Assembly (NCBI GenBank): GCA_011192005.1
Contig: DUFB01000066.1
Span: 583 to 64,582 of the forward strand
Direction of reading: 5' to 3'
Origin: Dehalococcoidia bacterium
GTDB lineage: Bacteria > Chloroflexota > Dehalococcoidia > Dehalococcoidales > RBG-16-60-22
Length of the DNA: 64,000 nucleotides
Each line of letters opens with the position of its first letter. Position 1 is the stretch's first letter. This document shows, piece after piece, positions 21,852 through 42,608 of the stretch. The position numbers and the translations under genes were made by a program. The notes beneath the pieces were generated by a model. The model searched no databases. It saw only the letters and a program-made list of their open reading frames with translations, and was not told the DNA's origin.

Positions 21852-22982
21852 ATGCATACACTCACTAAAAATGATTATGATGACGCCTTAGATTTAATCA
21901 ATTGTTGCTTATCATGCCTGAAAAGCGGCGGGAAGACAGAAGAAATTCTTTATGCATTGCTTAAATCATTTAAAGCTGATCAGGCAGTTTATCTTTCCGC
22001 GTCTAACAACGATAATGGAGTTGATCTCTCAAATTCCTACGCTTTATGCCAGGATAAATCTTTCCTTAACCAATATGCAGAGTATTTCTGGCGTTACGAC
22101 CCACTCTATCAGATGCAATTTTGTCCCACACCTGATAACCTCGTCTTTAAAACTGATGATATAATACCTTATTCACAAATGGTCAAGCTCGAATATTACA
22201 ACTCATTCCTCAGGCCACAAAACCTGCTGGGAGAATTAATAATTCGCCTTTATTCCAAAGGTTATGTATATGGAGTTATTTCTCTCCAGAGATTTAGAGA
22301 GCACTCCAATTTCAATGTAAACGATACACAGAAAGCCTCTTTGCTAGTTCCCTATCTTAACAATATTTTTGAAACAGCAGATAAATTAATCAAAATAAAC
22401 GAAGAAAGAATGCTGTTGGAACAATGGATGGAGTCTCATTCAGAAGGTCTCATTCTTTTAGATTCCAAATTCAGTCCTCTCTATTGTAATTCAGAAGCTA
22501 AGCTATTTTGTTTACTTATGAATCATAAAAATCTAAGGAGACCAGACGGAGGTAAAGACGTAGATATTTCTATTCCTCTATCAATCGTACAAGATTGTAT
22601 GAACCTAACAACATCATCCATTAAAGAGGGCATATATAAACACTTTAGTAACAAGATTATTAATATTGAACAGAAGAAGTACCATATACAATACTTCCCG
22701 GTTTTGTTACCCTCATCAAAACTACCCTCACCACGATTTATTATATTTGTCAATGAACTGACAAGATATCGTGACAATGCGGAAGAAAATTACACAACAG
22801 AATACAAATTAAGCGAAAGAGAAGAGAGTGTTGCACGATATGCTGCTATTGGATTGACCAATAAGCAAATAGCTGAAAAACTGTGTATTAGCCCATTTAC
22901 TGTGCAAAATCATCTAAAAAGTATTTTCGGAAAAACAGGAATTGATAACAGAACAAAACTCGCAAACTTCATGAAATACTAA
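21852..22982 (+). CDS. LuxR-family transcriptional regulator with an uncharacterised ~300-aa N-terminal domain
   Basis: C-terminal LSEREESVARYAAIGLTNKQIAEKLCISPFTVQNHLKSIFGKTGIDNRTKL is a GerE/LuxR HTH. There is no receiver domain and no recognisable autoinducer domain. The gene is markedly AT-rich compared with its neighbours. Confidence 0.85.
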   Translation: MHTLTKNDYDDALDLINCCLSCLKSGGKTEEILYALLKSFKADQAVYLSASNNDNGVDLSNSYALCQDKSFLNQYAEYFWRYDPLYQMQFCPTPDNLVFKTDDIIPYSQMVKLEYYNSFLRPQNLLGELIIRLYSKGYVYGVISLQRFREHSNFNVNDTQKASLLVPYLNNIFETADKLIKINEERMLLEQWMESHSEGLILLDSKFSPLYCNSEAKLFCLLMNHKNLRRPDGGKDVDISIPLSIVQDCMNLTTSSIKEGIYKHFSNKIINIEQKKYHIQYFPVLLPSSKLPSPRFIIFVNELTRYRDNAEENYTTEYKLSEREESVARYAAIGLTNKQIAEKLCISPFTVQNHLKSIFGKTGIDNRTKLANFMKY

Positions 22983-23383: not shown

Positions 23384-24964
23384 ATGAAAAAGTTATTCGT
23401 GTCTATGCTAATCTTGATATTATGTACTTTAATAGTTACTAGCTGTGCTTCTCCAGATCAGACAACTACTCCTACTTCAACAACAACTCCGACCACAACA
23501 ACTCCACCCACGACAACGATACAATCAAAATACGGGGGTACATTTAAATATATTGACCCGCGGTCACCGGCTAATACACTCGGTTGGCTGACAGAGCCTG
23601 GCCCTCCCCTCGGTTTATATGCGTGTACTTACCTTGAGGGTTTAGTCGGTGTTTACTATGATGGGACTATCTTCCCCATTCTTGCTACGTCATGGGATAC
23701 CGCACCAGATCTGAAATCAATTACCTTTACCTTGAGGCAAGGCGTTAAGTTTCACGATGGGTCTGACTTTAACGCTGAGGTGGTTAAGTGGAATTTTGAC
23801 CAGTATATTGCCGACCATCATTCTGGAGTGAAGGATATTGACTCAGTAGAAATAATCGACGACTACGCAATAACAGTCAACCTGAAAAAATATGTTAACA
23901 CGATATTCAGTACAATTTCAGGTTTATATATGATATCAAAAGTAGCTTACGATGAAGTAGGCAGGGAAGGACTGCGCTGGAACCCCATTGGGACGGGACC
24001 ATTCAAGTTCGAAAGTTTTGAGCGTGATGTCGTAGTGAAAGTTTCCAGATTCGAAGATTACTGGCAAGAGGGCAGGCCTTATCTCGATGCCATTGAAGCG
24101 CATTTCGTCCAGGATCCGTTGACTGCCCAAGCTTCTTTTGAGGCCGGTGAAGTGGATGCGGTAGGCGGCGATGTAGCCAGACAACTCTACGATTTACAGC
24201 AGAAGGGGTACGAAATATTTACAGTTTATAGCGGTGCTCATACATTGATACCCGATAGTAATAATCCAGACTCCATTTTAGCTAATCCTCTGGTTCGTCA
24301 GGCAATAGACTATGCAATCGATCGTGATGCTATTGTCAAAGCACGCGGTTTCGGTCTCTGGATTACCACTTATCAATTTGCACCTCCAAACGCGTCAGCC
24401 TATGTCACAGACCTGCCGGAGCGTAGGTATGACCCGGATAAAGCGAGGGAGCTTCTAACATTGGCGGGCTATTCCGAAGGTATCGATATTAAGATTATCG
24501 GTGATAGCTCTACTGCTGATAGAGACGCGGCTGTAGCGATACAGGGTTACCTCAGCGAAGTTGGGATTAATGCCCAGCTGGATTGGGTGGACTTCGCCGG
24601 ATTCGTGCAATATGTCATGGGAGGCTGGACCGATGCCATGCTCTTCTGTGCGAACGGATTTAATGCCGGGAATCTAAATTCCGGTATAGATTTTGTCTGG
24701 TCGCAAACTGCACCATTCTTCCCGAGCGTCTTAAAAACCGACGAGTTACAAAGGCTCATAGATGATTCTATGACCTCCCGTGACTACGACCCGGCACTGG
24801 TACAGAAAATACTCCGATATATAAATGACGAAGCCATGTTCCTCTCTCTCTATTGCATAACGCGGGGTCATGCCGTACAACCATATGTACACGACGCCGG
24901 TTTTGATAATACTCTTCTAGCATTAATGTCCTTCACACCGGCTGATACCTGGTTGAGTAAATAA
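23384..24964 (+). CDS. ABC transporter substrate-binding lipoprotein, family 5 (peptide/nickel/opine type)
   Basis: Lipobox LIVTS-C followed by a Thr/Pro linker (TTTPTSTTTPTTTTPPTTT). The body is DppA/OppA-like (GTGPFKF, RFEDYW). Confidence 0.88.
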   Translation: MKKLFVSMLILILCTLIVTSCASPDQTTTPTSTTTPTTTTPPTTTIQSKYGGTFKYIDPRSPANTLGWLTEPGPPLGLYACTYLEGLVGVYYDGTIFPILATSWDTAPDLKSITFTLRQGVKFHDGSDFNAEVVKWNFDQYIADHHSGVKDIDSVEIIDDYAITVNLKKYVNTIFSTISGLYMISKVAYDEVGREGLRWNPIGTGPFKFESFERDVVVKVSRFEDYWQEGRPYLDAIEAHFVQDPLTAQASFEAGEVDAVGGDVARQLYDLQQKGYEIFTVYSGAHTLIPDSNNPDSILANPLVRQAIDYAIDRDAIVKARGFGLWITTYQFAPPNASAYVTDLPERRYDPDKARELLTLAGYSEGIDIKIIGDSSTADRDAAVAIQGYLSEVGINAQLDWVDFAGFVQYVMGGWTDAMLFCANGFNAGNLNSGIDFVWSQTAPFFPSVLKTDELQRLIDDSMTSRDYDPALVQKILRYINDEAMFLSLYCITRGHAVQPYVHDAGFDNTLLALMSFTPADTWLSK

Positions 24965-24978
24965 TATTGTATACTTAA

Positions 24979-25017
24979 GGGGGGTCTCCTGGTAGGCTCT
25001 CCCTGCCGGGAGATCCC
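24979..25017 (+). other. Intercistronic hairpin after the SBP gene
   Basis: GGGGTCTCC (24981..24989) pairs with GGGAGATCCC (25008..25017): 9 bp including one G-U, with an 18-nt loop. Confidence 0.5.
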
Positions 25018-25039
25018 TAGTCCTCACAAGCGAATATAA

Positions 25040-25996
25040 ATGACGACTTATATTATTCGCAGGCTAATACAGTCTGTTTTCGTCCTCATTATCGTCACTC
25101 TGCTGGTTTTTCTTACGATGCATATCCTGCCGGGTGACCCAATTTTAATTTTTATGTCTTCGGGTGAGTTGAAAAATACCTCACTGGAAGAGATCGAGAT
25201 TCTCAGGCATGAGTTCGGATTAGATAGACCTCTCCTGATTCAGTATTTCGATTGGTTAGGTGGAGTGATCCATGGAGATTTCGGAATTTCGATTGTTCAA
25301 CGCGAACCTGTGGTAAAAGAAATTAACAGACGGTTGCCAATAACTCTACTATTAAGTTCTATAGCCCTATTTATCAGTATTATCATAGGCATACCGGCAG
25401 GTGTGATTTGTGCCGTAAGACGTGGTAATTGGATTGATACTGTGGTAACCATTATAGCAAATGCCGGGATTACTATTCCCGTTTTCTGGTTAGGGATAAT
25501 GTTAATCTATTTATTTGCTTTGAATCTGGGGTGGTTACCAGTACAGGGTTATACCTCGCCTTTTGTGGATTTTGTTAAGAGTATCAGGCAGATGATTATG
25601 CCCGTCTTTTGTCTAACTATATTCTCAATTTCCTCGATCACGCGCCAGACACGCTCCAGTATGCTCGAGGTTATGAAGCAGGACTATATCCGAACTGCCT
25701 GGTCCAAAGGCTTGAGAGAGAGATCGGTAATTTTCCGACACGCGCTGAAAAACGGCCTCATCCCAATTGTAACCCTGTTAGGGATGTCATTCAGCTTCAT
25801 TATCGGTGGCTCAGTACTTGTTGAGAACGTTTTTAATATCCCCGGAGTGAGTAGGTTGGTGGTCAACGCGGTATTCGTTCAGGATTATCCCGTGGTGCAG
25901 GGTTTCGTTTTGATAATCGCGGTGATAGTACTGCTATCAAATCTGATCGTAGATATTTCCTATGGCTGGCTCGATCCCCGAATCCGGTACGGATAA
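25040..25996 (+). CDS. Peptide-type ABC transporter permease (DppB/OppB family)
   Basis: 318 aa. Typical N-terminal YIIRRLIQSVFVLIIVTLLVF and the EAA-like loop MKQDYIRTAWSKGL. Confidence 0.9.
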   Translation: MTTYIIRRLIQSVFVLIIVTLLVFLTMHILPGDPILIFMSSGELKNTSLEEIEILRHEFGLDRPLLIQYFDWLGGVIHGDFGISIVQREPVVKEINRRLPITLLLSSIALFISIIIGIPAGVICAVRRGNWIDTVVTIIANAGITIPVFWLGIMLIYLFALNLGWLPVQGYTSPFVDFVKSIRQMIMPVFCLTIFSISSITRQTRSSMLEVMKQDYIRTAWSKGLRERSVIFRHALKNGLIPIVTLLGMSFSFIIGGSVLVENVFNIPGVSRLVVNAVFVQDYPVVQGFVLIIAVIVLLSNLIVDISYGWLDPRIRYG

Positions 25997-26035
25997 CATA
26001 TGTGATATCTGGAACAAGGAAAAAGCTTTAATAAA

Positions 26036-26905
26036 ATGACAAATGAGATAGAACCAAGTATTAGCGAATTCGCTTATATCAGGAGGGTGTTGTTAAGCCG
26101 GGGGGTAGTTGTATTTGGTCTTATCATCATCCTGATACTCATAATAACAGCTATTTTCGCTCCTTTGATGGCACCCTATGATCCTTATGATCAAGACTTG
26201 GATCAGGTTTTACAGCAGCCTTCCTGGGAACATCTACTGGGCACTGACTCCCTAGGGAGAGATACGTTAAGTCGTATCATCTATGGATCACGGAATTCAC
26301 TGATGGTGGGGTTGGTAGCGCTTTGCATCGCGGCCACGATTGGCATGACCATAGGATTAGTGGCCGGTTACTTCGGTGGTTGGATCAATACGGTCTTTAT
26401 GAGGTTTATTGACTCTCTGATGTGTTTCCCGATGATATTACTGGCGCTGGTACTCGCCGCCTTGCTTGGGAGTGGGCTTAGAAACGTGATGATAGCTCTT
26501 GGTGTTGCTATGTTGCCCGGATACGCCAGGTTAATGTGTGGCCAGGTACTTTCTGTAAAAGAAAATGATTATGTCCTTGCGGCACGTTCTTTAGGGACCA
26601 GTGATGCACATATTATACTCCGTCATATATTACCTAATTGCCTACCACCCCTAATAGTTTTAGTTACGATGCAGATAGGCGCGGCTATTCTGGCAGAGGC
26701 CGGATTGAGTTTCTTAGGAATTGGCATAGAACCACCCGGGGCTGCTTGGGGTACGATGATTAACGATGGTCGTGAATACATGCTGACAAACCCTATACTT
26801 TCATGTGCCCCCGGGTTGGCTATTATGCTGGTGGTTTTTAGTTTTAATATGGTAGGAGATGGTATGAGAGATGCTCTCGACCCGAGGCTCAGAGGTACTC
26901 TATAG
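26036..26905 (+). CDS. Peptide-type ABC transporter permease (DppC/OppC family)
   Basis: 289 aa. Contains HLLGTDSLGRDTLSRIIYGSR and the DYVLAARSLG EAA loop. Confidence 0.9.
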   Translation: MTNEIEPSISEFAYIRRVLLSRGVVVFGLIIILILIITAIFAPLMAPYDPYDQDLDQVLQQPSWEHLLGTDSLGRDTLSRIIYGSRNSLMVGLVALCIAATIGMTIGLVAGYFGGWINTVFMRFIDSLMCFPMILLALVLAALLGSGLRNVMIALGVAMLPGYARLMCGQVLSVKENDYVLAARSLGTSDAHIILRHILPNCLPPLIVLVTMQIGAAILAEAGLSFLGIGIEPPGAAWGTMINDGREYMLTNPILSCAPGLAIMLVVFSFNMVGDGMRDALDPRLRGTL

Positions 26906-26970: not shown

Positions 26971-27399
26971 CTAGTTTATATGCTTTTTGTATTCGGGCGC
27001 GAGCAAAATATCCAATACTATATAGGGTTTATCGACTCTTTTATGAGTTAGAGGACAATGCATCGTCCCCTTAGGGATATGGACGATAGCTGAGGATGTA
27101 ATGGTATGTTTTTCCTTTTCCTCACCCAGACATATTTCAACTTCTCCTCCCAGACTCTTCGAAAGTGGATTGCCCCCGATAAAGACAAGGAACTGGTCAA
27201 ATTCATGTGAATGCGTGTCCGAGACCATGACACTGGGCTCGGTGATAGCGGTTGCCGCTATGGAAAAGTCTTTTCCATTGAATTTCTTAATACCACTGGC
27301 ATGCGCCAGAATATGGTACTTACTTGCTATTGCTCCATCTTCCAACTTCGGTGGGGGAAATTCGGTTAAGACAAGGTGCTCATATTTTATTTTAGTCAT
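26971..27399 (-). CDS. Uncharacterised cupin-like protein, paralog 2 of 4
   Basis: DTHSHEFDQFLVFIGGNP...GGEVEICLGEEKEKHTI...IPKGTMHCPL...KPYIVLDI. Lies 101 nt downstream of amidohydrolase A1 on the same strand. Confidence 0.8.
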   Translation of the reverse strand: MTKIKYEHLVLTEFPPPKLEDGAIASKYHILAHASGIKKFNGKDFSIAATAITEPSVMVSDTHSHEFDQFLVFIGGNPLSKSLGGEVEICLGEEKEKHTITSSAIVHIPKGTMHCPLTHKRVDKPYIVLDILLAPEYKKHIN

Positions 27400-27500
27400 G
27401 TTTGACCTCCCTATCTTTTTTACACCATATTTCCGGTTTACGCTAAGGTTACATTAAGCCTGACCGATACTCCCTTAACCTGATCCAGAATTATCTCATG

Positions 27501-29240
27501 TTACAGCACTCCGGCATCATACACGACATTCCCACCGGCAATTGTCATCAAGATTTTTAAATCTACGATTTTGTGTGGATCAATGGTGAGGATATCATCA
27601 TCAATGATGCAGAAATCAGCAACCTTACCGGGATCGATCGTACCCTTGTAGTCCTCCATGTGATCCAACCAGGCGCCGTGACTCGTATAGGTAGCTATGG
27701 CTTCAGGCACAGTAATACACTGCTCCGGGCCACTGGGTTTACCGGTAGCTTTTGATTCCCTTAAAACCGCTCCTTGCACGCCCGGTCTCCAATCTGGGTA
27801 GATAACCGGGGCATCAGAGCTGTTGGCTACAATAATGCCATTATCGAGCATTGTTCTCAAAGGCCAGTGGTATCCTGCTCTCTCCGGTCCGACAACCGTC
27901 TCCATAAAGTCAGAGATGGTCCACTTTATAGGCGATTGGATATTTAAACCAACCTGATATCGGGAACGCTGGTTAAATTCCCCGATCTTCCTTAGAGTCT
28001 CAGGCATGGAAAAATCACTGTGTATTGTATAGTGGCGGGCATCCCACGGGTCTTCATCAATACATTTCATGTATTGGTCAGTGCAGATATCGACAGTCCT
28101 TTCACCGCAGCTATGAATACCGACCTGCAACCGATTCTGGTGCAGGACTTTTATCATTTCTCTTAAATTTCTCTCCTGTTCCTCTATCGTATCGCCTTCG
28201 GTCACCAGAAGTCCGTGTGTACCATCCAGATAAGGTTGATACATAAACGCAGTCTTTAGAGGAGGTATACCATCGGCTACAATTTTGGCTCCACCAACTT
28301 TTAACCATTCATTGCCAAAATTATATCTGCACCCGACATATTTTAAAGCTTCTTTCATCGTTTCCAGCACAGTCTTCCCGAAACCTGCCAGCATTAATAA
28401 CATGTTAACCCGGCAGGTAAATTTACCATCTTTAAAGTTTTCATTAAAGACATCATTATAACATGCCCATTTTTCCCGATCGACACCCGCATCTGTAAAA
28501 CTCGTGATACCCAGCGAGCTTAATTCGGACATGGCACCAAGTAAAGCCTCTTTTCGTTGTTGGGAAGTCCATGGAGGAATCTTTTCTCTCACCGGCATTG
28601 CTGCCTTCTCATACAGCAAGCCGGTAAGTTCCCCGCTTTCAGGGGATCTTTCAATCCTCCCACCCACTGGATCAGGTTGGTCTCTAGTGATCCCAGCTAT
28701 CTCCAGAGCTCTGCTATTTACCCATATACGATGCCCGGAATATTCCGTAAGAACAACAGGATTATTCGGAGCAATCCTATCCATATCTTCTCTAGAGGGC
28801 TTACGATTAGAATCAGCGAGGCACTCTTCCAAGTAACCTTCGTCCCAACCTTCTCCAAGTATCCATTCTCCAGGCTTTACCAACTTTACTTTTTCAGCCA
28901 CCATTTCAAGAATATCAGCGATAGATTTTATTACCGGAAATCTTGTTTCCAACATAAAGGGAGGCCGTGTTAACGCCCAGTCGGAAATATGGCAATGTGT
29001 ATCGTTAATGCCGGGTAACACAGAATTGCCTTTTAGGTCAACTGTTTTTGTTTTCCTGCCGACAAGCGCACCAATATCTTCTGTTGTGCCAACAGCGATT
29101 ATTTTATCGCCCCGGACAGCTAATGCCTGAGCTATGGAGAAATCACGATCAACCGTGATTACCTTACCATTGGTAATAACTAAATCGGCTTTCATCAGGT
29201 CTAATAATGAGTTGCTACTTTTCATATCTCTTTCTTGCAT
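27501..29240 (-). CDS. Amidohydrolase_3 family metal-dependent hydrolase (YtcJ-like), copy A1
   Basis: 579 aa. LPGINDTHCH metal motif, the long insertion typical of Amidohydrolase_3, and C-terminal GKVADFCIID. Paralog of 32459..34141. Confidence 0.88.
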   Translation of the reverse strand: MQERDMKSSNSLLDLMKADLVITNGKVITVDRDFSIAQALAVRGDKIIAVGTTEDIGALVGRKTKTVDLKGNSVLPGINDTHCHISDWALTRPPFMLETRFPVIKSIADILEMVAEKVKLVKPGEWILGEGWDEGYLEECLADSNRKPSREDMDRIAPNNPVVLTEYSGHRIWVNSRALEIAGITRDQPDPVGGRIERSPESGELTGLLYEKAAMPVREKIPPWTSQQRKEALLGAMSELSSLGITSFTDAGVDREKWACYNDVFNENFKDGKFTCRVNMLLMLAGFGKTVLETMKEALKYVGCRYNFGNEWLKVGGAKIVADGIPPLKTAFMYQPYLDGTHGLLVTEGDTIEEQERNLREMIKVLHQNRLQVGIHSCGERTVDICTDQYMKCIDEDPWDARHYTIHSDFSMPETLRKIGEFNQRSRYQVGLNIQSPIKWTISDFMETVVGPERAGYHWPLRTMLDNGIIVANSSDAPVIYPDWRPGVQGAVLRESKATGKPSGPEQCITVPEAIATYTSHGAWLDHMEDYKGTIDPGKVADFCIIDDDILTIDPHKIVDLKILMTIAGGNVVYDAGVL

Positions 29241-29315
29241 CCCCCCTTCGTTAGATAGACAAATAAAACCATGCCAACATAACCGCCAATAATAGTCCTC
29301 TGACGAATTTGAATT

Positions 29316-30701
29316 TTATTTAATACTCTTACAGATATCCAGAAGAATATCTGTTGCCTTCTCCATATATTCTCTCGTAATAGTTAATGACGGCATAAAA
29401 CGTATCACATTGTGGTAACGGCCACAGGGGACAGCGATTATTCCCTGGTTGAGCAGTCCTGCCATAATTGCCCCCATATTCTCCGCAGAAAGTGGCTCTT
29501 TAGTTTCCTTATCCTCCACAAGCTCTATTCCGATGAACAGCCCTTTCCCGCGGATGTCCCCGATGATACCGATGTCCCTTGAAGCTTTCTGGAGTCTGGT
29601 TTTGGTCTCCTCACCCAATTTAGTAGCCCTGCCCATAAGGTCGTAACCACTATCTATAAGAATATCAATATTGGTTATGCAGACAGCTGCGGAAAGGGAA
29701 TTCGCGGCGAATGTATTGGGCTGTGATGACTCCTCCAGTTTATCAGCGAATTCAGCCTTAAACGTAACGCCAGCCATGGGAAGATCACCACCCATACCCT
29801 TGCCCCATGTCAACATATCGGGGACAACATTGCTGTGCTCGATAGACCACATCTTGCCGCTTCGTCCCGCACCTGCTTGAACCTCATCAGCAATGAATAG
29901 AGTTCCTTTTTTCTCGCAGGATTTTTTTAGTATCTCCATGTAACCCGGCGGTGGCGCCAGATAACCGCCTTCACCCTGCAGCGGTTCCACGATAAGTGCG
30001 GCGACGTCATCCGCGGCTGTATAAGGAGTATTAAGCACGTAATCGACGTATTTGGCACACTGGAGGTCGCAACTCGGATACTCCAGTCCAAAACAGCAGC
30101 GGTAGCAATAGGCATAAGGAACGTGTATGACATAGGGCATCAGGGGCCCATAACCGTGGCGGTAGTTATCCCCCGTAGTCAGTGCACCAGATCCAACCCA
30201 CACCCCGTGATAACCTCCATGAAAGGCGACAATCTGCGATCTGCCAGTCAAATGCCGGGCGAATTTGATAGCTGTTTCCACAGCGCCGCTACCGCTTTGG
30301 GTAAAGTAACTCACACAATTATTACGAAGTCCTTCAGGCATGATTTTGGATATATTTTTTGCCAATTCTGTGCGGCGAGTGCTCACCGCCTCAATAGCGT
30401 GCATCATCTTACCTATCTGTTCTTGTATTGCCTCGACCACCCTCGGGTGCCGTCGACCTACCGCACTTACGGCAACTCCGGCTGTTAAATCAATAAAAAG
30501 GTTGCCATCGGGATCCTTGACAGTGGCACCCATACCTTCATTAAAAACGGGAGGAGCAGCACCACCGGGACGGGTTAACGACTCATACTTTGGTACATCC
30601 TTCAGCACCTTAAGGCTTTTTGGTCCCGGAATCTCGGTTGTGATTTCCGGTGCGCCCGGATAGGATAACTTAGCCAGTTCTGTTTCTGATATCATGTCCA
30701 T
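29316..30701 (-). CDS. Class-III PLP-dependent aminotransferase (omega-amino acid / GABA-type)
   Basis: 461 aa. SGSGAVETAIKFAR, FIADEVQAGAGRSGKMW, and the TWGKGMGGD PLP-lysine region. Confidence 0.88.
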   Translation of the reverse strand: MDMISETELAKLSYPGAPEITTEIPGPKSLKVLKDVPKYESLTRPGGAAPPVFNEGMGATVKDPDGNLFIDLTAGVAVSAVGRRHPRVVEAIQEQIGKMMHAIEAVSTRRTELAKNISKIMPEGLRNNCVSYFTQSGSGAVETAIKFARHLTGRSQIVAFHGGYHGVWVGSGALTTGDNYRHGYGPLMPYVIHVPYAYCYRCCFGLEYPSCDLQCAKYVDYVLNTPYTAADDVAALIVEPLQGEGGYLAPPPGYMEILKKSCEKKGTLFIADEVQAGAGRSGKMWSIEHSNVVPDMLTWGKGMGGDLPMAGVTFKAEFADKLEESSQPNTFAANSLSAAVCITNIDILIDSGYDLMGRATKLGEETKTRLQKASRDIGIIGDIRGKGLFIGIELVEDKETKEPLSAENMGAIMAGLLNQGIIAVPCGRYHNVIRFMPSLTITREYMEKATDILLDICKSIK

Positions 30702-30774
30702 TCTCCTTATAAAAATTTAAATATCTAATAGATTTGACTACATCTCAATAAATTATGTAATCAATAAAAATGGA

Positions 30775-31884
30775 TCACAAAGTATCTAAAGAGGTATATT
30801 CTAAACCCAGTGATTTGGCTACTGGTGCGTATACCAACTTACCTTTATAGACATTCAGACCCTTTTTTAGGTTTTCATCAGTTCGTAATGCTTCGCAGTA
30901 TCCCATGTCTGCCAGTTTTAAAATGTAGGGGAATGTAGCATTGGTCAATGCAAACGTTGAACTTCTTGAGACTGCCGAAGGTATATTCGCCACGCAATAA
31001 TGGAGAACATCATCAACGATGAATACAGGCTTATCATGGTTGGTCGGAACAGAAGTTTCACAGCACCCACCCTGGTCGACCGCAACATCCACCAATACGG
31101 AGCCCTTGCGCATTTTTGTCAACATTTCTCTCGTCACTAATTTCTCTGCCCTGGCTCCCGGTATTAACGTTGCGCCCACTACGAGGTCGGCATCAGCTAA
31201 TACTGCTTCGATATTACTTTTATTGGAAGCTATAGTGATCAGTCTGCCACTAAGGATATCAGCCAAGTATCTCAGCCTTTCAATATTTATATCTAAAATG
31301 GTGACGCTAGCACCCATTCCGAGCGCTACTTTAGCAGCGTTAGTACCGACAGTCCCGCCCCCGATAATAACAACATTACCCGGTCTGATTCCCGGTACAC
31401 CCCCTAATAAAACTCCACTACCCCCATTTTCTCTCTGAAGATAACAGGCGCCCACCTGAACTGACAGTTTGCCAGCTATTTCACTCATCGGTTCCAGTAA
31501 CGGTAAAGAACCATCGGGCAACTGGACCGTCTCGTAGGCAATCCCTATTACCTTTCTCTCTAACAAGGCCTTCGTCAGTTCCAGGGCAGGGGCAAGATGT
31601 AAATAAGTAAACAGTATCTGTCCTTCTTTAAGTAAAGGCCATTCTTCGTGAATCGGCTCCTTTACCTTGATGACCATCTCCGCTTCTCCGAATATTTCGT
31701 CTACCGACTCCTTTATCTCGGCACCAGCAAGCTGGTACTCCTCGTCGGAGATACCGCTTCCATCACCCGCTGATCTTTCCAACAGAACCCGGTGACCTTT
31801 TGAAACCAGTGTTCTTACACCAGCGGGGACCATGGCGACACGATACTCATAATTTTTTATTTCCCTGGGAACACCTATAATCAT
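30775..31884 (-). CDS. ald: Alanine dehydrogenase
   Basis: 369 aa. MIIGVPREIKNYEYRVAMVPAGV, the GGGTVGTNAAKVALGMGA Rossmann motif, and full-length Ald similarity. Confidence 0.92.
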   Translation of the reverse strand: MIIGVPREIKNYEYRVAMVPAGVRTLVSKGHRVLLERSAGDGSGISDEEYQLAGAEIKESVDEIFGEAEMVIKVKEPIHEEWPLLKEGQILFTYLHLAPALELTKALLERKVIGIAYETVQLPDGSLPLLEPMSEIAGKLSVQVGACYLQRENGGSGVLLGGVPGIRPGNVVIIGGGTVGTNAAKVALGMGASVTILDINIERLRYLADILSGRLITIASNKSNIEAVLADADLVVGATLIPGARAEKLVTREMLTKMRKGSVLVDVAVDQGGCCETSVPTNHDKPVFIVDDVLHYCVANIPSAVSRSSTFALTNATFPYILKLADMGYCEALRTDENLKKGLNVYKGKLVYAPVAKSLGLEYTSLDTL

Positions 31885-32458
31885 GATTCGTCAAGTCTCC
31901 TTGTTACATTGAATGCTTAATACTTAGAGTAAAGAAGAATGTGGTTATAAATTTATTACTTATAACATCTGTATATAAAGGAGTGAATCATTTGAACATC
32001 ATCTGTTTTTAGTTAAACATTAAGGCAGTATGTATTCAATGCCTCATTTGGGCTATCTTTAAATGTTGTAACATGGGGCAAATTTGATGATACTATAGGC
32101 TGTATTATAAGAATAATGGTTTATCAATGCGTTAATTAATATCAAAATAACTGCCCGTTTTATAGTTTTTATAGAGTATAGGATTATTACTAACGTGGGT
32201 ATTTATTATCTAACCATAATAGCTATTTTTAGCTATTGAACGCATTAGATTATGAACGTACCCTATATGTATGTGGTTCAGTATGATTTTCGTCCACGTT
32301 GGCGTAAAACATTGCCTCCTTATTCTGAAGCGAACTAATAAGCCTGTTTTCCATTTCACTATTGTGGCCAGACCTTTGTATTCCCTTTCCCAATTAAGGT
32401 AAATAACTCATATCTTCCGTATATTAGATAATTTAACGATATTAAGGAGAAGAGCCTT

Positions 32459-34141
32459 ATGAAAAAGCAAATCAAGTCGAAATGGCAACCAATGAATCCT
32501 GATCTGGTGATGTATAACGGAAAAATCGTTACCGTTGATAATGATTTCTCAATCACCGAAGCCATAGCAATCAAAGATAATAGAATATATGGCGTAGGTT
32601 TAAGCTCTGATATGAAAAACCTGTCCGGTGAAAAAACCGAACTTATAGATTTGAATGGTGCTACAGTGTTGCCCGGGATCAATGATGCACATTGCCATCT
32701 CAATGGCTTCGGATTGGAGAGACCTCCTTTTTTGGTTGACCTTGCCTATCCACTGATCAAGTCACTAGAAGACATTAGAAAGACAACAGCGGCTAAAATC
32801 GCTGAAGTTGGCATCGGTAAGTGGATTTCGGGATGGGGATGGGATAGAGGTTTCCTGGCGGAGTTCAAGGACAAGCCGCAATCCTGGCCAACTCGATATG
32901 ATATTGACCCGGTAAGTCCCGATAATCCCGTTGTATATTCCGAATTTTCCGGCCATACCTGTCTCGTTAATAGCAAAGTCCTGGAGATAGCCGGAATCAA
33001 CAGAGATACGCCCAATCCTGAAAACGGCATCATCCAGAGGGATGCGTCCGGAGAACCGACCGGCATACTTTTTGAGACGGCCGCAGGCATGATGCGTGAG
33101 TTGGTACCGCCACCGACGGAAGCAGAACGAAAAACCGGCATTCTCAATGCTATGGCGGAACTGAACTCACTGGGGATAACCTGCGTCACCGAGCCCGGAC
33201 TCAACGCTGACCAGATCAGAATATATACGAATCTATATAATCAGGGGAAATTTACACTCAGAGTGAATTGTATGGTCATGGGTGGTCCGTCACTCAACGC
33301 AGTCAAACAAATCCTTGATAACGTGGGAACGTGTACCGGGTTTGGCAACGAGTGGTTGAGAATATCAGGACTGAAGCTGCTGGCGGACGGTATCCCGCCC
33401 TCAAAAACTGCCTTTATGTACGAAGATTATCTCGGAGGAGGCCATGGCAAATTGCTGGTAGATGGAAAAACCGACGAAGAACGATATGACATGTTGATCA
33501 GCATGATCAAGTATGCCAATGCCCGCGACTTTCAGGTTGGTATTCATGTGACCGGAGACCGGGGTATTGATGCCTGTGTGGACGGATACATCGCTGCCCT
33601 GGCAGAACATCCCTGGGACGCAAGACACTATACTATTCATACAGATTACGTGACATTAAAGTGTATGAAAAGGATGGCCAAGCATAACATCGGAGCCAAC
33701 ATACAATCGGCGATAAAGTGGACTATCGGTAATCTGATGGTCGGTATTGTCGGTGAGAAAAGAGCCGCCTATCACTGGCCCTTGAAATCATTATTTGACG
33801 CAGGCGTCAGGGTGAGTAACAGTTCCGATGCTTCGGTGACTTACCCGGATTGGAGACAAGGTGTTGAATCTGCCGTTTTACGTAAAGACAAAGCTACAGG
33901 AAACGTTCTCGGTGCGTACGAATGTATTAGTGTTGAACAAGCCATCCGTTCTTACACCATCAACGGTGCGTGGCAGGATCATCAAGATAATGTCAGAGGT
34001 TCAATTGAAGTTGGAAAACTAGCCGATTTCACGATCATAGGTGACGACATTTTATCCATCGATCCCAACAGGATTCACGAAATTCCGGTACTTTATACCA
34101 TAGTCGACGGAAAGATTGTTTATAAAAACCTAAAATATTAA
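32459..34141 (+). CDS. Amidohydrolase_3 family metal-dependent hydrolase (YtcJ-like), copy A2
   Basis: 560 aa. SD AAGGAG. LPGINDAHCH and GKLADFTIIG. Collinear with A1 over its whole length. Confidence 0.88.
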   Translation: MKKQIKSKWQPMNPDLVMYNGKIVTVDNDFSITEAIAIKDNRIYGVGLSSDMKNLSGEKTELIDLNGATVLPGINDAHCHLNGFGLERPPFLVDLAYPLIKSLEDIRKTTAAKIAEVGIGKWISGWGWDRGFLAEFKDKPQSWPTRYDIDPVSPDNPVVYSEFSGHTCLVNSKVLEIAGINRDTPNPENGIIQRDASGEPTGILFETAAGMMRELVPPPTEAERKTGILNAMAELNSLGITCVTEPGLNADQIRIYTNLYNQGKFTLRVNCMVMGGPSLNAVKQILDNVGTCTGFGNEWLRISGLKLLADGIPPSKTAFMYEDYLGGGHGKLLVDGKTDEERYDMLISMIKYANARDFQVGIHVTGDRGIDACVDGYIAALAEHPWDARHYTIHTDYVTLKCMKRMAKHNIGANIQSAIKWTIGNLMVGIVGEKRAAYHWPLKSLFDAGVRVSNSSDASVTYPDWRQGVESAVLRKDKATGNVLGAYECISVEQAIRSYTINGAWQDHQDNVRGSIEVGKLADFTIIGDDILSIDPNRIHEIPVLYTIVDGKIVYKNLKY

Positions 34142-34233
34142 AATGCGAGTATCAAGACTTGGTTTCTCCTGATAAATACGAACAGGCAGTAAAAGCTGTT
34201 ATTTAATTGTTACTGAAAAGGGGAGGCAAATCA

Positions 34234-34686
34234 ATGACATTACTGCAAACCGCCAAATACATCAGAACGAATATCACAAGGCCATCACGTCATGTCGAGG
34301 TCACGGCACCGATACCGGTCTTGAGAAGTGACGATAACTATGGCGACCACGGGTTCTGGATGTACTGGAAATGTATTACTAAACCCTATGTAGACGAGTC
34401 TGAGACCCATAAACACGATTTCGATCAGTATCTGGTATTCCTCGGAGGGGAGCCGGAAAATATGCTGGACCTGGATGGAGAAGTGGAATTAACCCTAAGT
34501 GAAGATGGTATTAAAAAGGAAGTGCATACTTTTACCCGATATACCACCGTGTATATCAGGGCCGGATTGTATCATTGCCCGCTTATTTTTAAGAAAGTGA
34601 CCAAACCGATTATCTTTTATGACTTTGTTAACACACAACAATATAGCCGCAAATTCAAAGACCCGGGGAAGAAGTGGCAACCATAG
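34234..34686 (+). CDS. Uncharacterised cupin-like protein, paralog 3 of 4
   Basis: ORF 34207..34686. The ATG at 34234 lies 7 nt after an AAGGGGAGG SD. ETHKHDFDQYLVFLGGEP...DGEVELTLSEDG...AGLYHCPL...KPIIFYDF. Lies 92 nt downstream of amidohydrolase A2. Confidence 0.75.
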   Translation: MTLLQTAKYIRTNITRPSRHVEVTAPIPVLRSDDNYGDHGFWMYWKCITKPYVDESETHKHDFDQYLVFLGGEPENMLDLDGEVELTLSEDGIKKEVHTFTRYTTVYIRAGLYHCPLIFKKVTKPIIFYDFVNTQQYSRKFKDPGKKWQP

Positions 34687-35228
34687 TGGAATACTATGAG
34701 ATAAACGTACGTAACCTGAAAACAAGGAAAAAACCAGCGTTAACAGGAGAAACACATCCATTGAAAGAAAATTCAGAACACTTAATATCAAATACACACA
34801 ATACCAACAATACTGAATCCGAAGTCGCCAGAGATTCTGAAACCGGATCATCTGCTTTTCCTCCCCGAGGCCATAATGAAATATCGACAAGAATAGGATA
34901 TCTTCCTTCCCTGACCCCGCCACCAATTCAGAAAAGGAAAGACAAAATCCCGGAGAGGATATACAGTTTCGAGATACCACCTGAGCCAATTCCAGCCAGT
35001 GATATCAAGGAAGAGATCGAGGCCGAAGTAGTTGTAGTCGGCGCCGGAATAGCCGGATTAAGCGCCTCAATTTCTGCAGCGGAAGCAGGCGCCAAGACCA
35101 TCTTGGTAGAAAAGATGGCAACGGTTCAAGCCCGCGGCCATGATAATGCCTTTCTCAATAACCGGCTCCAGAAGAAGCTGGGTATAGAGATTGACAAAGA
35201 AGAAGTTATATTAAATCTGATGAAATAA
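34674..35228 (+). pseudogene. N-terminal fragment of an FAD-dependent oxidoreductase (FrdA/KstD-like dinucleotide-binding fold only)
   Basis: AEVVVVGAGIAGLSASISAAEAGAKTILVEKM is a GxGxxG FAD motif. The ORF stops about 60 aa later, whereas such flavoproteins are normally over 450 aa. No continuation is seen in any frame before the convergent gene at 35496. Confidence 0.45.
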
Positions 35229-35495: not shown

Positions 35496-36353
35496 CTATC
35501 GAATACGTGAGTTATCCTTTAAAGGAGCGTTAATTATCCCGTAGAATTCTGGTCTGCGGTCTCTTATAATATCAGCTTCGAATCTGCCAGGTATGACTAC
35601 TCTGTGTTTCTCCCTAGCTAATGCTGGATTAATCTCAGCATAGATAATATCTTCTTCGTATGACTTGCCTTCAGAAATTGTAGTACCTGCACAATCAACA
35701 ATCTTACTCATACCGAAGAATTTGACACCTCCCTCCTCGCCAACACGATTAACAGCGATGTGAAAGACGTTGTTCTCATAGGCTCTGGTAACTAAAGTAT
35801 GTTCAGGTGTAAATTCAACTCCTTGAGGCCAATTAGTAATTATAACAATAACTTCGGCTCCTAAAAGCGATAAAACACGGGAGTGTTCGGGAAAACGCAT
35901 GTCATAGCAGATGCCTATACCGATCCTGCCTATATCTGTATCATAAACTTCCAGAGGCAGGTCTCCGTGATTTAGGAAACGGTCAATACCAAGAAATGGC
36001 AGGTGAAGTTTTCGATATTTGCCGATTAATCCATGCGGTCCAACAAATGCAGCTGAATTGTAATATTTTCCTCTATCTTCTTCTATGAGGCCTAATATGA
36101 CATATACATTTAATTGGCGGCAGAGTTTCGTAATACTCTCGGTAGCGACGCCTGGTATAGTATCAGCTACCGGTAATACCTCTTCCAGACTGTTAAAAAC
36201 GTAACCGCTCAATGTTGCTTCGGGAAATACAATTAATTGAGTTCGCTCTTCGGCAGTGATTTTTATAAAATCCAGGCATCGATTTAAATTTCGGTCTTTA
36301 TTCAAAATCTCGGGACTCATTTGTATACCGGCAATCTTTATAGTTTCATCCAT
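35496..36353 (-). CDS. Carbon-nitrogen hydrolase family protein (nitrilase/amidase superfamily)
   Basis: 285 aa. SD GGAGGGG. Glu-Lys-Cys triad contexts: VFPEATLSGY, YRKLHLP, GIGICYDMRFPE. Confidence 0.88.
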   Translation of the reverse strand: MDETIKIAGIQMSPEILNKDRNLNRCLDFIKITAEERTQLIVFPEATLSGYVFNSLEEVLPVADTIPGVATESITKLCRQLNVYVILGLIEEDRGKYYNSAAFVGPHGLIGKYRKLHLPFLGIDRFLNHGDLPLEVYDTDIGRIGIGICYDMRFPEHSRVLSLLGAEVIVIITNWPQGVEFTPEHTLVTRAYENNVFHIAVNRVGEEGGVKFFGMSKIVDCAGTTISEGKSYEEDIIYAEINPALAREKHRVVIPGRFEADIIRDRRPEFYGIINAPLKDNSRIR

Positions 36354-38686: not shown

Positions 38687-39931
38687 ATGACATTGCAGAA
38701 CCATAATCAGATCGAGAGGATCTATTTGATACAAGCGTTAGAAGGCTTAAAGGTTTTAGACCTCACACGGTATGCCCCGGGACCTTACGGTACCATGATT
38801 CTGGGTGACCTTGGGGCTGATATCATCAGGGTTGAAGAGGTCGGCTCACCCGCCGGTCGTCGCGCCGACCAGATGAAGGGGATGAATGAAGTTCCACCTC
38901 CAGCCGAATTTGCCTCCCCTGATACTCCCTATTACCCGCTGAATCGTAACAAGAGAAGTATTCGACTTAACCTTAAAGCGCCGGCAGGGCAGCAAATATT
39001 TTACCAGCTCGCTAAAGTAAGCGACGTCGTTATAGAAGGCTTCCGTCCCGGTGTAACCAAGCGTTTAGGCATAGATTACCCGACCCTTAATAAAATAAAT
39101 CAAAAGTTGATATACTGCGCTTTAACCGGATACGGCCAGGATGGTCCGTATCGGGATTTACCCGGACACGATATAAACTATATTGCCAGTGCTGGTGTTG
39201 TAAGTGCTATAAGTCTTCCTGGAAATCTTCTCGTACCGGGGAATCTCATCGGTGACATGGCCGCTGGCGGAATGCAAGCTGCGATCGGGATACTGGTGGC
39301 ACTTGCTGCCCGGGAGAAAACGGGAAAGGGGCAGTTTGTGGATATTGCCATGACCGATGGCGCTGTTAGTATGCTTTGTCTGTATCTCAGTCAGTACTTC
39401 CAGAATGGCACTATACCGGAGCCTGAAGAACGGGTAAGTTGCGGGGCATCGCACCACTATAATCATTATCAGACTGGAGATGGTAAATTCATCACTATTG
39501 CCTGCTCTGAGCCTTGGTTCTTTGCTAATTTGTGCCGGGCTTTGGACTGTGAAGACTTTATTCACCACCAGACAGATGAAGAGAAAGCTGATGAGATAAA
39601 AGTATTTTTTACAAAAAGGTTCCTCACCCGTACCAGAGATGAATGGTTTGATATATTATCCAGAGCTGATGTCCCGGTGAGTAAAGTGTGCACTCTTGAT
39701 GAACTCTCTAAAGATTCCCAGCTGAGACATCGTCAGATGATTCTGGAAATGGACCATCCCGGAAAAGGTAAGATAAAACAGGTCGGTATATCTATCAAGC
39801 TATCTGACACACCGGGGAGAATTAAGAACTTGGGTTCGAAGCCGGGTGAAGACACCAGCGAAATTTTGTCTGAACTTGGTTACGGCAATAAGGAAATTCA
39901 GCAACTAATAACGGAAAATATTGTCGGCTAA
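38687..39931 (+). CDS. Family-III CoA-transferase (CaiB/BaiF/Frc type), copy 1
   Basis: LEGLKVLDLTRYAPGPYGTMILGDLGADIIRVE and GYGQDGPY. An alternative TTG start at 38726 has a better SD (GAGAGGA). Confidence 0.88.
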   Translation: MTLQNHNQIERIYLIQALEGLKVLDLTRYAPGPYGTMILGDLGADIIRVEEVGSPAGRRADQMKGMNEVPPPAEFASPDTPYYPLNRNKRSIRLNLKAPAGQQIFYQLAKVSDVVIEGFRPGVTKRLGIDYPTLNKINQKLIYCALTGYGQDGPYRDLPGHDINYIASAGVVSAISLPGNLLVPGNLIGDMAAGGMQAAIGILVALAAREKTGKGQFVDIAMTDGAVSMLCLYLSQYFQNGTIPEPEERVSCGASHHYNHYQTGDGKFITIACSEPWFFANLCRALDCEDFIHHQTDEEKADEIKVFFTKRFLTRTRDEWFDILSRADVPVSKVCTLDELSKDSQLRHRQMILEMDHPGKGKIKQVGISIKLSDTPGRIKNLGSKPGEDTSEILSELGYGNKEIQQLITENIVG

Positions 39932-40057
39932 CAATAAATGGATAAGAAGTTAATTAAATCATAAAGATAACGGGCTCCTTTAAGCTCAAACGACCGTATC
40001 TATATCTTTATCAATATTTGGATTAGTTTCACACGGTCTGGAAAAGGAGAAATGCAC

Positions 40058-40522
40058 ATGACAAAGCCGTCAAACAGTGACCCAGCGCCTGATAAGCTAC
40101 AAATCCTGGTGCAGGAAGGCCTGTTTTACCAGCCTCAATCTCCCAAAGAGAAACCATATTTAATCGGTTCCAGATGTAGTTTATGCGGGTATGTCAGTTT
40201 CCCCAAACTCATGGTTTGCCCTTGCTGTGTCCAAATAAACACTATGGAGGAAATGCATATTACCGGGAAGGGCAAAATAGATACGTTTAGTGTATGTTAC
40301 GCGGCTTTACCGGGTTTTCAGGCACCCTCCATTCAAGGTTATATTAACCTAGAGGAGGGAGCCAGAATTTGGTCACTGATAACCGGTGTTGAGCCATCCG
40401 ATGAATCATTGAAGATTGGCATGGACGTTGAGTTGGTAATAGGTAAGTTGAGAGAGGATGCCGAAGGTAATGAAATCATAAGCTATCAGTTCAAGCCAGT
40501 AAAGACTGACCGGAAAGGATAA
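40058..40522 (+). CDS. Zn-ribbon/OB-fold DUF35 protein (thiolase small partner, BbsA/ChsH-associated type)
   Basis: ORF 40052..40522. CSLCGYVSFPKLMVCPCC rubredoxin-like ribbon plus an OB fold. Lies 5 nt upstream of the thiolase gene. Confidence 0.85.
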   Translation: MTKPSNSDPAPDKLQILVQEGLFYQPQSPKEKPYLIGSRCSLCGYVSFPKLMVCPCCVQINTMEEMHITGKGKIDTFSVCYAALPGFQAPSIQGYINLEEGARIWSLITGVEPSDESLKIGMDVELVIGKLREDAEGNEIISYQFKPVKTDRKG

Positions 40523-40527
40523 ATAGC

Positions 40528-41685: not shown

Positions 41686-41744
41686 GGTGGTTCGGGTAAT
41701 CTGGACCACTGGCAAATCCGGAGTAGGGGGAGATCAAATATATC

Positions 41745-42608
41745 ATGGAAATTAAGAACGTTGGAGTAGTCGGCTGCGGTATCATGGGCTCAGGCATTGC
41801 TCAGGTCTGTGCTCAATCGGGATATAACATAACTATATCGGAAATAAGTGATGAAGTCTTGAACAAAGGACTGAAATCTATTGAAACCATACTTACCAGG
41901 AGTGTAGATAAGGGCAGGATATCCCGGCAAGACAGGGAATCCGTCTTGGCTCTTATAAAAGGTACTACGAATATGGAAGACTTCTCCGATTGCGAACTTG
42001 TAATAGAAGCGGCAACAGAGGACTTGGATATTAAGAAGGGAATCTTTTCCACGCTTGATAAGGTTTGTCCCAGGCATACTATTCTCGCAACCAATACCTC
42101 GGTATTATCCGTTTCTGATATGGCGGCGGTAACCGGTAGGCCTGAAAAAGTGATTGGAATACACTTTTCAAATCCTGTCCCCGTTATGAAGATAGTGGAA
42201 ATGATAAAGACGATTGTCACCAGTGAATCTACGGTAGAAATCAGTAAGCAGTTTTGCGAATCTCTGGGCAAAACCGTGGTAATTACCAAAGACCTGCCGG
42301 GTTTTATCTCTGGCCGCATATTTACACCTTTTGTGCTGAATGCTATCCGTCTTGTGGAAGCGGATATTGCCAAACCTGAGGACATTGATACCATATTTCG
42401 ACTTGGGGCGGGGCATCCTATGGGTCCTCTGGAAACGGCGGATCTTGTCGGTATCGATATCATATACAATGCTGCGAGCGCTATTTACGATGAATTAAAA
42501 GACCCGCAGTATCTACCTCCACAGTTGATGAAAAAGATGGTGACCATGGGCTGGCTCGGACGCAAGACGGGAAAAGGATTCTACACCTACCCTGAAGGAA
42601 AAAGCTAG
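41745..42608 (+). CDS. hbd: 3-hydroxyacyl-CoA (3-hydroxybutyryl-CoA) dehydrogenase, NAD-dependent
   Basis: VGVVGCGIMGSGIAQV Rossmann motif, NTSVLS, and the GHPMGPLETADLVGID C-terminal domain. Confidence 0.9.
   Translation: MEIKNVGVVGCGIMGSGIAQVCAQSGYNITISEISDEVLNKGLKSIETILTRSVDKGRISRQDRESVLALIKGTTNMEDFSDCELVIEAATEDLDIKKGIFSTLDKVCPRHTILATNTSVLSVSDMAAVTGRPEKVIGIHFSNPVPVMKIVEMIKTIVTSESTVEISKQFCESLGKTVVITKDLPGFISGRIFTPFVLNAIRLVEADIAKPEDIDTIFRLGAGHPMGPLETADLVGIDIIYNAASAIYDELKDPQYLPPQLMKKMVTMGWLGRKTGKGFYTYPEGKS

Follow-up and report, generated by a model that had tools for sequence, protein, structure and literature searches.

In the allantoin pathway, allantoinase, an enzyme of the amidohydrolase superfamily, and (S)-ureidoglycine aminohydrolase, a bicupin, are encoded in one gene cluster and serve a nitrogen-releasing route. 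The cupin MarH epimerizes a keto acid made by an aminotransferase, and Tpa is a class-III aminotransferase whose pyruvate is recycled by the alanine dehydrogenase Ald. In Bilophila wadsworthia, metal-dependent bile salt hydrolases (PF07969, YtcJ-like) free taurine from N-acyl taurines; the key genes of taurine metabolism in this organism, which are highly expressed, include tpa and ald (PMC13081902, bioRxiv 2026). The present analysis deals with a 64,000-nt stretch of a Dehalococcoidia genome (contig DUFB01000066.1), denoted here as the window, in which two YtcJ-like metal hydrolases, A1 and A2, are each followed by a small cupin, P2 and P3, respectively, and lie next to genes for a class-III aminotransferase and Ald. 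Dehalococcoidia are among the most abundant uncultured bacteria of anoxic sediments, and their diet is poorly known.

The likeness to Bilophila lies in an Amidohydro_3/YtcJ-like hydrolase that releases a primary amine in an organism relying on tpa and ald. The Bilophila enzyme BwBSH1 is secreted, has a size of 101 kDa and carries an extra C-terminal domain, whereas A1 and A2 comprise 560-580 aa and show no signal peptide by eye; moreover, the aminotransferase of the window resembles γ-aminobutyrate aminotransferase (GABA-AT), and a cupin is not mentioned in the Bilophila work (PMC13081902). What the locus would share with the allantoin pathway is a catabolic route that releases nitrogen and employs both a metal amidohydrolase and a metal cupin, but allantoinase belongs to Amidohydro_1, a sequence relationship to the allantoin-pathway cupin was not detected, and the window contains no ureide-pathway genes. 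Nearest to the cupins, by sequence profile and predicted structure, are MarH (PDB 6j4b, maremycin pathway) and the non-heme iron epimerase/lyase 7eqk, both monocupins of about 120-130 aa whose HxH...GxxH site aligns with that of the window proteins. These relatives are distant (20-22% identity, profile E 0.13-1.2, query-normalized TM-score about 0.5) and stem from actinomycete secondary metabolism, whereas the window family is set apart by an N-terminal extension and by bicupin forms. Archaeal cupin-type phosphoglucose isomerase (PGI; PF06560; PDB 1x82, 1j3p) is likewise a metal-dependent, O2-independent isomerase of the cupin fold, but it is 189 aa long, and its sugar-phosphate-binding parts are unmatched in the window cupins. 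The nearest solved structures to A1 and A2, the archaeal YtcJ-like hydrolases PDB 3icj and 3igh (E about 1e-23, full length), are uncharacterized and distant.

Judged from gene order in related genomes, the region around A1 and A2 is one version of a catabolic cluster that is conserved across Dehalococcoidia, its order having been changed by inversion. The cluster thus defined consists of a regulator, an importer, two amidohydrolases, an aminotransferase, and Ald, and probably strips nitrogen from imported amides. We favor, with reasonable though not high confidence, its reading as an amide-to-amine-to-ammonia catabolic cluster in which cupins are optional and exchangeable accessories.

Organization of the cluster in the window

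All coordinates refer to positions within the window, unless another locus is named. The open reading frames (ORFs) of the cluster and its direct surroundings are the following.

21852 to 22982, + strand: LuxR-type regulator with a C-terminal GerE helix-turn-helix, N-terminal domain unannotated (Pfam GerE, E 2.7e-15)
23384 to 24964, + strand: SBP_bac_5 lipoprotein, substrate-binding protein of an Opp/Dpp-type ATP-binding cassette (ABC) importer (Pfam SBP_bac_5, E 8e-72)
25040 to 25996, + strand: ABC permease 1 (Pfam BPD_transp_1 and BPD_transp_1_N)
26036 to 26905, + strand: ABC permease 2, OppC-like (Pfam BPD_transp_1 and OppC_N)
26971 to 27399, - strand: P2, predicted monocupin of 142 aa, P2 subfamily (fold model and metal motif; identical to database homolog P0001)
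27501 to 29240, - strand: A1, YtcJ-like Amidohydro_3 metal hydrolase of 579 aa (PF07969, E 1.5e-86)
29316 to 30701, - strand: class-III (GABA-AT-like) pyridoxal phosphate (PLP)-dependent aminotransferase (Pfam Aminotran_3, PF00202, E 1e-94)
30775 to 31884, - strand: alanine dehydrogenase, Ald (NCBIfam TIGR00518 alaDH)
31885 to 32458, no strand: divergent intergenic region, AT-rich, 574 nt (31.4% GC)
32283 to 32393, + strand: relic of a P5-type cupin (pseudogene remnant) directly 5' of A2 (tblastn)
32459 to 34141, + strand: A2, YtcJ-like Amidohydro_3 metal hydrolase of 560 aa (PF07969, E 3e-92)
34234 to 34686, + strand (mechanical ORF from TTG 34207): P3, predicted monocupin of 150 aa, P3 subfamily (Shine-Dalgarno sequence and homolog start)
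34674 to 35228, + strand: truncated FAD-binding ORF with the dinucleotide-binding motif alone (residues 117-150 match FAD_binding_2 and related models)
35496 to 36353, - strand: CN_hydrolase of the nitrilase/amidase superfamily (Pfam CN_hydrolase, E 1.6e-51)

In the ORF map, all ORFs sit where a preliminary description of this DNA had placed them, and its further observations on the layout were confirmed as well: the divergent spacer measures 574 nt and has a GC content of 31.4% vs. 46.9% for the whole window, and the distance from each amidohydrolase to the cupin paralog behind it lies within the described 92-101 nt (101 nt for A1-P2, 92 nt for A2-P3, the latter counted from ATG 34234). This ATG is most likely the start of P3, since it is preceded by the Shine-Dalgarno sequence GGGGAGG and P0002, a homolog of 150 aa, begins at the same Met; the ATG of P2 is preceded by GGGAGG. 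On the coding strand, no terminator-like site was found between amidohydrolase and cupin in a scan of A1-P2 and A2-P3. The number of sites in this promoter/terminator scan did not exceed that in shuffled sequence, and the scan is mute on co-transcription except for the absent hairpin.

Gene order in related genomes

With A1 and A2 as seeds, 78 genome loci were fetched, and P2 and P3 yielded a further 35 metagenome loci (numbered with the prefix L); every ORF of these loci was scored against the window proteins and a cupin hidden Markov model. Among the arrangements encountered are the following, P5 denoting a further cupin type.

L010, L086, and L094: A1, Ald, aminotransferase, A2, and P3, on one strand
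L005: aminotransferase and Ald in reverse orientation, then P5, A2, and A1 forward, LuxR-type regulator reverse, substrate-binding protein and two permeases forward
L016: P5, A2, Ald, and aminotransferase, all forward
L007: substrate-binding protein reverse, two P5 cupins, LuxR-type regulator reverse, then A1, Ald, and aminotransferase forward
L008: A1 forward, then permease 2, permease 1, substrate-binding protein, and LuxR-type regulator in reverse orientation
L009 and L011: aminotransferase, A2, and CN_hydrolase, all forward

In Dehalococcoidia, the aminotransferase, Ald, the LuxR-type regulator, and the ABC importer are stable companions of A1 and A2, occurring in many orders. Orthologs of the regulator (40-68% identity) adjoin A1 in five loci (L005, L006, L007, L008, L010), the SBP_bac_5 gene is syntenic in L002, L005, L007, L008, and L010, and permease 1 orthologs (58-86% identity) are convergent with A1 in L001, L002, and L008. 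CN_hydrolase homologs (51-52% identity) come after A2 in L009 and L011 and represent a recurrent A2 neighbor. The arrangement in the window, described earlier as a mirror-duplicated two-gene module, is another permutation of the conserved cluster and not a local mirror duplication.

The predicted enzymes of the cluster

A1 and A2, which had been described as collinear paralogs, indeed align collinearly with 49% identity over 559 aa, and both are Amidohydro_3 proteins (PF07969, COG1574): their full-length PF07969 matches reach 292 bits (A1) and 311 bits (A2) against a gathering cut-off of 29.7 and cover profile positions 1-472. The HCH motif (H82, H84), H376, H403, H407, and Asp476 of the SSDA motif, all of them putative metal ligands, are identical in both proteins. 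Orthologs of A1 and A2 (65-83% identity) occur in many Dehalococcoidia metagenome-assembled genomes (MAGs). On the neighbor-joining tree, the duplication behind the two proteins is ancient, because the A1 clade (11 sequences), the A2 clade (17 sequences), and their sister relation each receive a bootstrap of 100%.

In some MAGs, A1 and A2 are encoded apart from each other (loci L004/L026 in one, L007/L013 in another), which rules out an obligate A1/A2 heteromer. Each of the loci L007 and L013 has its own aminotransferase, whereas in the other MAG an aminotransferase is found in the A1 locus (L004) alone; the A2 locus (L026) has a P5 cupin upstream and no aminotransferase within the fetched flanks.

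Ald passes the equivalog model TIGR00518 (512 bits vs. a cut-off of 391.85). The class-III aminotransferase does not reach the cut-off of any NCBIfam equivalog model; among solved structures, GABA aminotransferases are closest to it, and PLP racemases sharing this fold come next. The solved structures closest to the SBP_bac_5 protein are YliB/GsiB, YliB being a glutathione-binding protein, and AgaA, which binds opines.

A family of unannotated cupins

Beside P2 and P3, two further intact cupin paralogs, P1 and P4, and a decayed fifth copy are found in the window. The additional intact copies and one example of a two-domain form from a related locus are located as follows.

9567 to 10025, - strand: P1, monocupin paralog (tblastn, 46% identity to P2)
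46465 to 46887, + strand: P4, monocupin paralog (tblastn, 37-38% identity to P2 and P3)
L014, 6708 to 7664, - strand: bicupin

P2 and P3 share 44% identity over 99 aa (E 8e-26). None of the four window cupin paralogs matches any Pfam or NCBIfam model at E<=0.01, none of all 120 database homologs carries a precomputed Pfam domain, and the best match to a cupin in a PDB sequence-profile search had an E of 0.13. Five of 39 family members show sub-threshold Cupin_2 matches (best E 0.032); Cupin_1 and GPI (PF06560) matches are weak too, the latter occurring in two of the 39 members and far under the family threshold. Assignment to the cupin fold rests on an AlphaFold2 (AF2) model and Foldseek. The AF2 model of P2, built with 39 homologs, is an all-beta barrel (mean predicted local distance difference test score 79.7, 77 residues at 90 or above), and its top 50 Foldseek matches in the PDB are all cupins (E 2e-5 to 4e-4), with MncA in first place and archaeal cupin-type PGI, MarH, 7eqk, OxdC (oxalate decarboxylase), and TM1459 among the top matches.

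Cupins receive their metal ligands from motif 1, G(x)5HxH(x)3-4E(x)6G, and motif 2, G(x)5PxG(x)2H(x)3N. The metal motif of P2 comprises H63, H65, Q69, and H114, and in the alignment of 39 sequences HxH(x)3[E/Q](x)5G and PxGxxH, including G75 and G111, vary little or not at all. As the third ligand, the P1, P2, and P3 types have Gln, and the P4 and P5 types have Glu; one additional Glu is invariant across all subfamilies, and the trailing Asn of motif 2 is not conserved. The small proteins are predicted to be true cupins with a classical His/His/Glu-or-Gln/His metal site. The earlier label "cupin-like" is borne out by predicted fold and metal motif, with the curated models staying below threshold.

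The family is large. A profile search recovered 517 clusters at 90% identity, all "hypothetical", the named ones belonging to Dehalococcoidia, Dehalococcoidales or Chloroflexota, and an exhaustive search gave 1,350 clusters at 50% identity (871 at E<=1e-10). About half of the latter are bicupins, which comprise 280-360 aa with two domain copies and often lie directly upstream of a monocupin (L087, L131, L133). The cupin tree contains six subfamilies at 97-100% bootstrap, with an unresolved branching order among them (best inter-subfamily bootstrap 52%). Neither the literature nor the family models searched yielded a description of this family, and a literature search on Dehalococcoidia with amidohydrolase, aminotransferase, and Ald, or with a cupin, returned nothing relevant.

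P1 lies downstream of genes for a PAS-HisKA_3 histidine kinase and a LuxR-type response regulator (9567-11981, - strand), and P4 belongs to a beta-oxidation-like operon, with an acyl-CoA dehydrogenase gene before it and a SnoaL_4 gene after it. A P1-type homolog in L128 (2550-4423) comes after a PF00144 beta-lactamase-fold hydrolase and beside a kinase and a sigma-54 regulator. The neighborhood to SnoaL_4 recurs as well: P4 is followed by it in the window (46465-47618, + strand), a P3-type cupin in L131 (3501-4764), and SnoaL is also found near family cupins in L087 and L004. Elsewhere, family members adjoin hydrolases (PF00144, COesterase, Peptidase_S15), 3-hydroxyacyl-CoA dehydrogenase, enoyl-CoA hydratase/thiolase, and AFOR. 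The recurrence of hydrolase neighbors of several folds (Amidohydro_3 and the three just named) hints at a loose link to amide or ester hydrolysis, in a sample that is small and lacks a background control.

Position of the cupins relative to the amidohydrolases

The combination of amidohydrolase and downstream cupin had been proposed to be a functional unit, its gene order having been kept through duplication and divergence. Of ten A1-clade loci with downstream sequence, none has a cupin behind A1. The stop codon of A1 in L001, L002, and L008 lies about 25 nt from the convergent stop codon of permease 2, and exactly at this junction the window contains a segment of about 575 nt with P2. Because A1 directly abuts the permease gene in these three loci, P2 looks like a lineage-specific insertion of about 575 nt between A1 and the permease gene. 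The segment was also checked for flanking repeats, the mark of a mobile insertion, and none of note was found. A P2 ortholog with 70% identity follows an SBP_bac_5 gene and not an amidohydrolase.

P3 shows a different distribution. Orthologs with 75-79% identity are encoded after A2 in five other contigs (L010, L086, L089, L094, L103). Among 13 A2-clade loci found via the amidohydrolase, P3 is present downstream in one; the four further contigs with this order were seeded with the cupin. P3-type orthologs also come after a bicupin (L087, L131, L133), after a 3-hydroxyacyl-CoA dehydrogenase gene preceded by that of a distant Amidohydro_3 protein with 30% identity (L090, L092, L095), and after other genes (L088, L132). 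Going by these neighborhoods, the A2-P3 pairing is recurrent but dispensable, and the cupins are a dispersed family that is not specific to amidohydrolases.

A sister grouping of P2 and P3 receives a neighbor-joining bootstrap of 1%, vs. 100% for A1 and A2, and the two cupins fall into separate subfamilies of equal age. The congruent trees expected from co-duplication were thus not obtained, and on comparison with related genomes the co-duplicated amidohydrolase-cupin unit does not survive as an explanation of the sequences. Of the proposed functional unit, there remain two real adjacencies, one of which (A2 followed by P3) recurs in five contigs, while the other (A1-P2) looks like a lineage-specific insertion.

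The cupin that recurs with this cluster is instead found upstream. In the divergent spacer, a frame of 37 codons (32283-32393, + strand) encodes the peptide FSMIFVHVGVKHCLLILKRTNKPVFHFTIVARPLYS, which is 59-62% identical over 37 aa to the C-termini of intact P5 cupins (tblastn, E 3e-13); farther upstream the frame is closed by stops. This relic is located exactly where intact P5 cupins sit in other genomes, namely directly upstream of A2 (L005, L016, L026); in L006, L007, and L010 an intact P5 lies upstream of A1, beyond the LuxR gene. Because intact P5 is present at these positions in all six loci, the recurrent, ancestral cupin partner of the cluster is, by synteny, the upstream P5 type, which survives here as a relic. 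The genome of the window has lost intact P5 and carries P2 at a new position; one paralog may have replaced the other.

Proposed route and role of the cupins

It is supposed that a small amide, either peptide- or opine-like or an N-acyl omega-amine, would be imported by the Opp/Dpp-type ABC importer and hydrolyzed by A1 or A2. Their amide substrates are probably related but not the same, since some genomes encode each enzyme in a locus of its own together with an aminotransferase. The primary amine thus set free would then be transaminated to pyruvate by the class-III aminotransferase, and Ald would regenerate the pyruvate, yielding NH4+ and NADH. Carbon skeletons could enter reactions encoded by the adjacent genes for enoyl-CoA hydratase, family-III CoA-transferases, thiolase, 3-hydroxyacyl-CoA dehydrogenase, and acyl-CoA dehydrogenase. 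The cupins would serve as accessories: P5 upstream recurrently (decayed here), P3 after A2 in a subset of genomes, and P2 inserted after A1. They do not look like an obligate amidohydrolase subunit. As a low-confidence guess, they might carry out an O2-independent, metal-assisted isomerization, epimerization or elimination on a carbonyl intermediate from the hydrolase or aminotransferase steps; such an isomerase, epimerase or lyase is suggested because the predicted metal site is kept, the host is anaerobic, and the nearest structural relatives include MarH, 7eqk, and cupin PGI. The cluster design is familiar, and no new mechanism or new kind of system is indicated. Its enzymes and the cupins, whose family of about 1,350 clusters (50% identity) recurs in catabolic islands of Dehalococcoidia, often beside hydrolases, are concrete targets for heterologous expression.

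Several points weigh against this route or the accessory role of the cupins. Beside the importer (23384-26905, binding protein and two permeases), ATPase genes are absent. The amide substrate of A1 and A2 is proposed at the level of a class, with no substrate-specific marker found, and pyruvate is suggested as the amino acceptor solely by the adjacent Ald. The fold family of the aminotransferase includes PLP racemases, among them amino-acid-amide and aminocaprolactam racemases. The cupin chemistry is guessed from structural neighbors that are distant (query-normalized TM-score about 0.5, 20-22% identity). The cupin tree fails to support co-duplication, short of excluding it formally, as its deep nodes are unresolved. 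Finally, a rough estimate puts the chance that both amidohydrolases directly precede one of four cupins among about 55 genes at about 0.4%; a selective hydrolase-cupin link is therefore likely, and this link could be tighter than "accessory" implies.

Three further explanations of the cupins appear improbable to a similar degree. The first holds that the family is a dedicated, exchangeable helper of amide/ester hydrolases in Dehalococcoidia, either an O2-independent metal isomerase or lyase that pulls the product onward or a metal-insertion factor, with interchangeable subfamilies of which P2 would have replaced the decayed P5. We would give it little credence at present; if true, it would mean a new functional class of cupins and a handle on the many uncharacterized hydrolase clusters that these sediment bacteria use on refractory organic nitrogen.

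The second, an unlikely one as well, supposes that the cupins are unrelated to the amidohydrolase pathway and that members of an abundant paralog family came to lie there by chance and rearrangement. Four copies and a relic within 64 kb would suit such a history, as would the very diverse cupin neighbors in other contigs; moreover, of 22 Chloroflexi loci seeded with the amidohydrolases, eight contain a cupin within about 5 kb, a frequency that does not clearly exceed the density in the window. Chance accounts poorly, however, for the way in which independent genomes carry one subfamily at a matching relative position (P5 upstream in six loci, P3 after A2 in five contigs), for a relic exactly at the P5 position, and for a cupin after both amidohydrolases, given the estimate above.

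According to the third, the cupins are small non-enzymatic binders of ligands or metals that assist neighboring regulators as co-sensors or supply the metallohydrolases with metal. This idea draws on the position of P1 after a PAS histidine kinase and a response regulator, on the P1-type homolog beside a kinase and a sigma-54 regulator, on the P5 cupins that adjoin a LuxR-type regulator gene in L006, L007, and L010, and on the top Foldseek match MncA, a metal-binding cupin. It is hard to reconcile with the lack of any DNA-binding or signaling domain in the cupins, with the full enzyme-type His/His/Glu(Gln)/His site and invariant Glu kept in all subfamilies, and with the many copies in beta-oxidation-type operons that contain no metalloenzyme or regulator, so that we consider it doubtful.

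Least probable of all is a module duplicated as a unit and kept as an obligate pair, be it for a complex or for substrate hand-over: for it speak a same-strand cupin paralog 92-101 nt behind each amidohydrolase, with a Shine-Dalgarno sequence and no terminator-like site in between, the A2-P3 order in L010, L086, L089, L094, and L103, and the P5 cupins directly ahead of A2 in L005, L016, and L026, but the downstream cupin is found in none of ten A1 orthologs (A1 abutting the permease in three loci) and in one of 13 A2 orthologs found via the amidohydrolase, the P2-P3 and A1-A2 bootstraps diverge (1% vs. 100%), P2- and P3-type orthologs follow unrelated genes, and P1 and P4 follow a kinase and an acyl-CoA dehydrogenase, so that for A1-P2 this reading is already largely refuted.

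Other routes were considered and rejected. Reductive pyrimidine breakdown (CN_hydrolase with beta-alanine transaminase), ectoine-type chemistry, and cupins of the dimethylsulfoniopropionate-lyase type found no specific support and are analogies only, and the same applies to a taurine or N-acyl-taurine route. No sulfoacetaldehyde-processing enzyme (Xsc, SarD/IslA) was recognized among the window genes scanned, of which a thiamine pyrophosphate enzyme (1302-2924) was not looked at closely.

Other features of the window

The nearest ABC ATPases in the window (8091-9519) belong to a branched-chain-type system. A molybdopterin oxidoreductase gene (15959-19021, + strand), resembling the alpha subunit of formate dehydrogenase, is split by a single TGA at 16529-16531 into two ORFs of one frame. 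The peptide around this codon, HARI-[TGA]-HSPTVASLAETFGRGAMTN, corresponds to the selenocysteine site of formate dehydrogenases, and 15959-19021 is therefore probably one selenoprotein gene. It is flanked by NuoE/NuoF-like, Fe-S, cytochrome b, and FdhE-like genes.

The FAD-binding ORF (34674-35228, + strand) overlaps the end of P3, has the N-terminal dinucleotide-binding motif alone and stops after 184 codons, with closed frames downstream; it is likely what is left of a flavoprotein gene. The close relative L100 contains fragments of nearly the same sequence, and L131 has a full FAD oxidoreductase, followed by a bicupin and then by a P3-type cupin. A serine-recombinase-like ORF (48316-49341, + strand), which lies just after a drop in GC content at 46-48 kb, shows a Recombinase match from residue 1 and a zinc-ribbon, and no Pfam match to the N-terminal resolvase domain; it may be the remnant of a mobile element. 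Two DegV-family paralogs (50927-51781 and 52446-53312, + strand) enclose an ORF of 213 aa. Three family-III CoA-transferase paralogs are encoded within 7 kb (38687-45154, + strand), together with genes for enoyl-CoA hydratase, a ChsH2-type OB-fold protein, a thiolase-like protein, 3-hydroxyacyl-CoA dehydrogenase, and acyl-CoA dehydrogenase, and a similar set of enoyl-CoA hydratase, ChsH2, thiolase, and 3-hydroxyacyl-CoA dehydrogenase genes is found beside a P4-type cupin in L116-L123.

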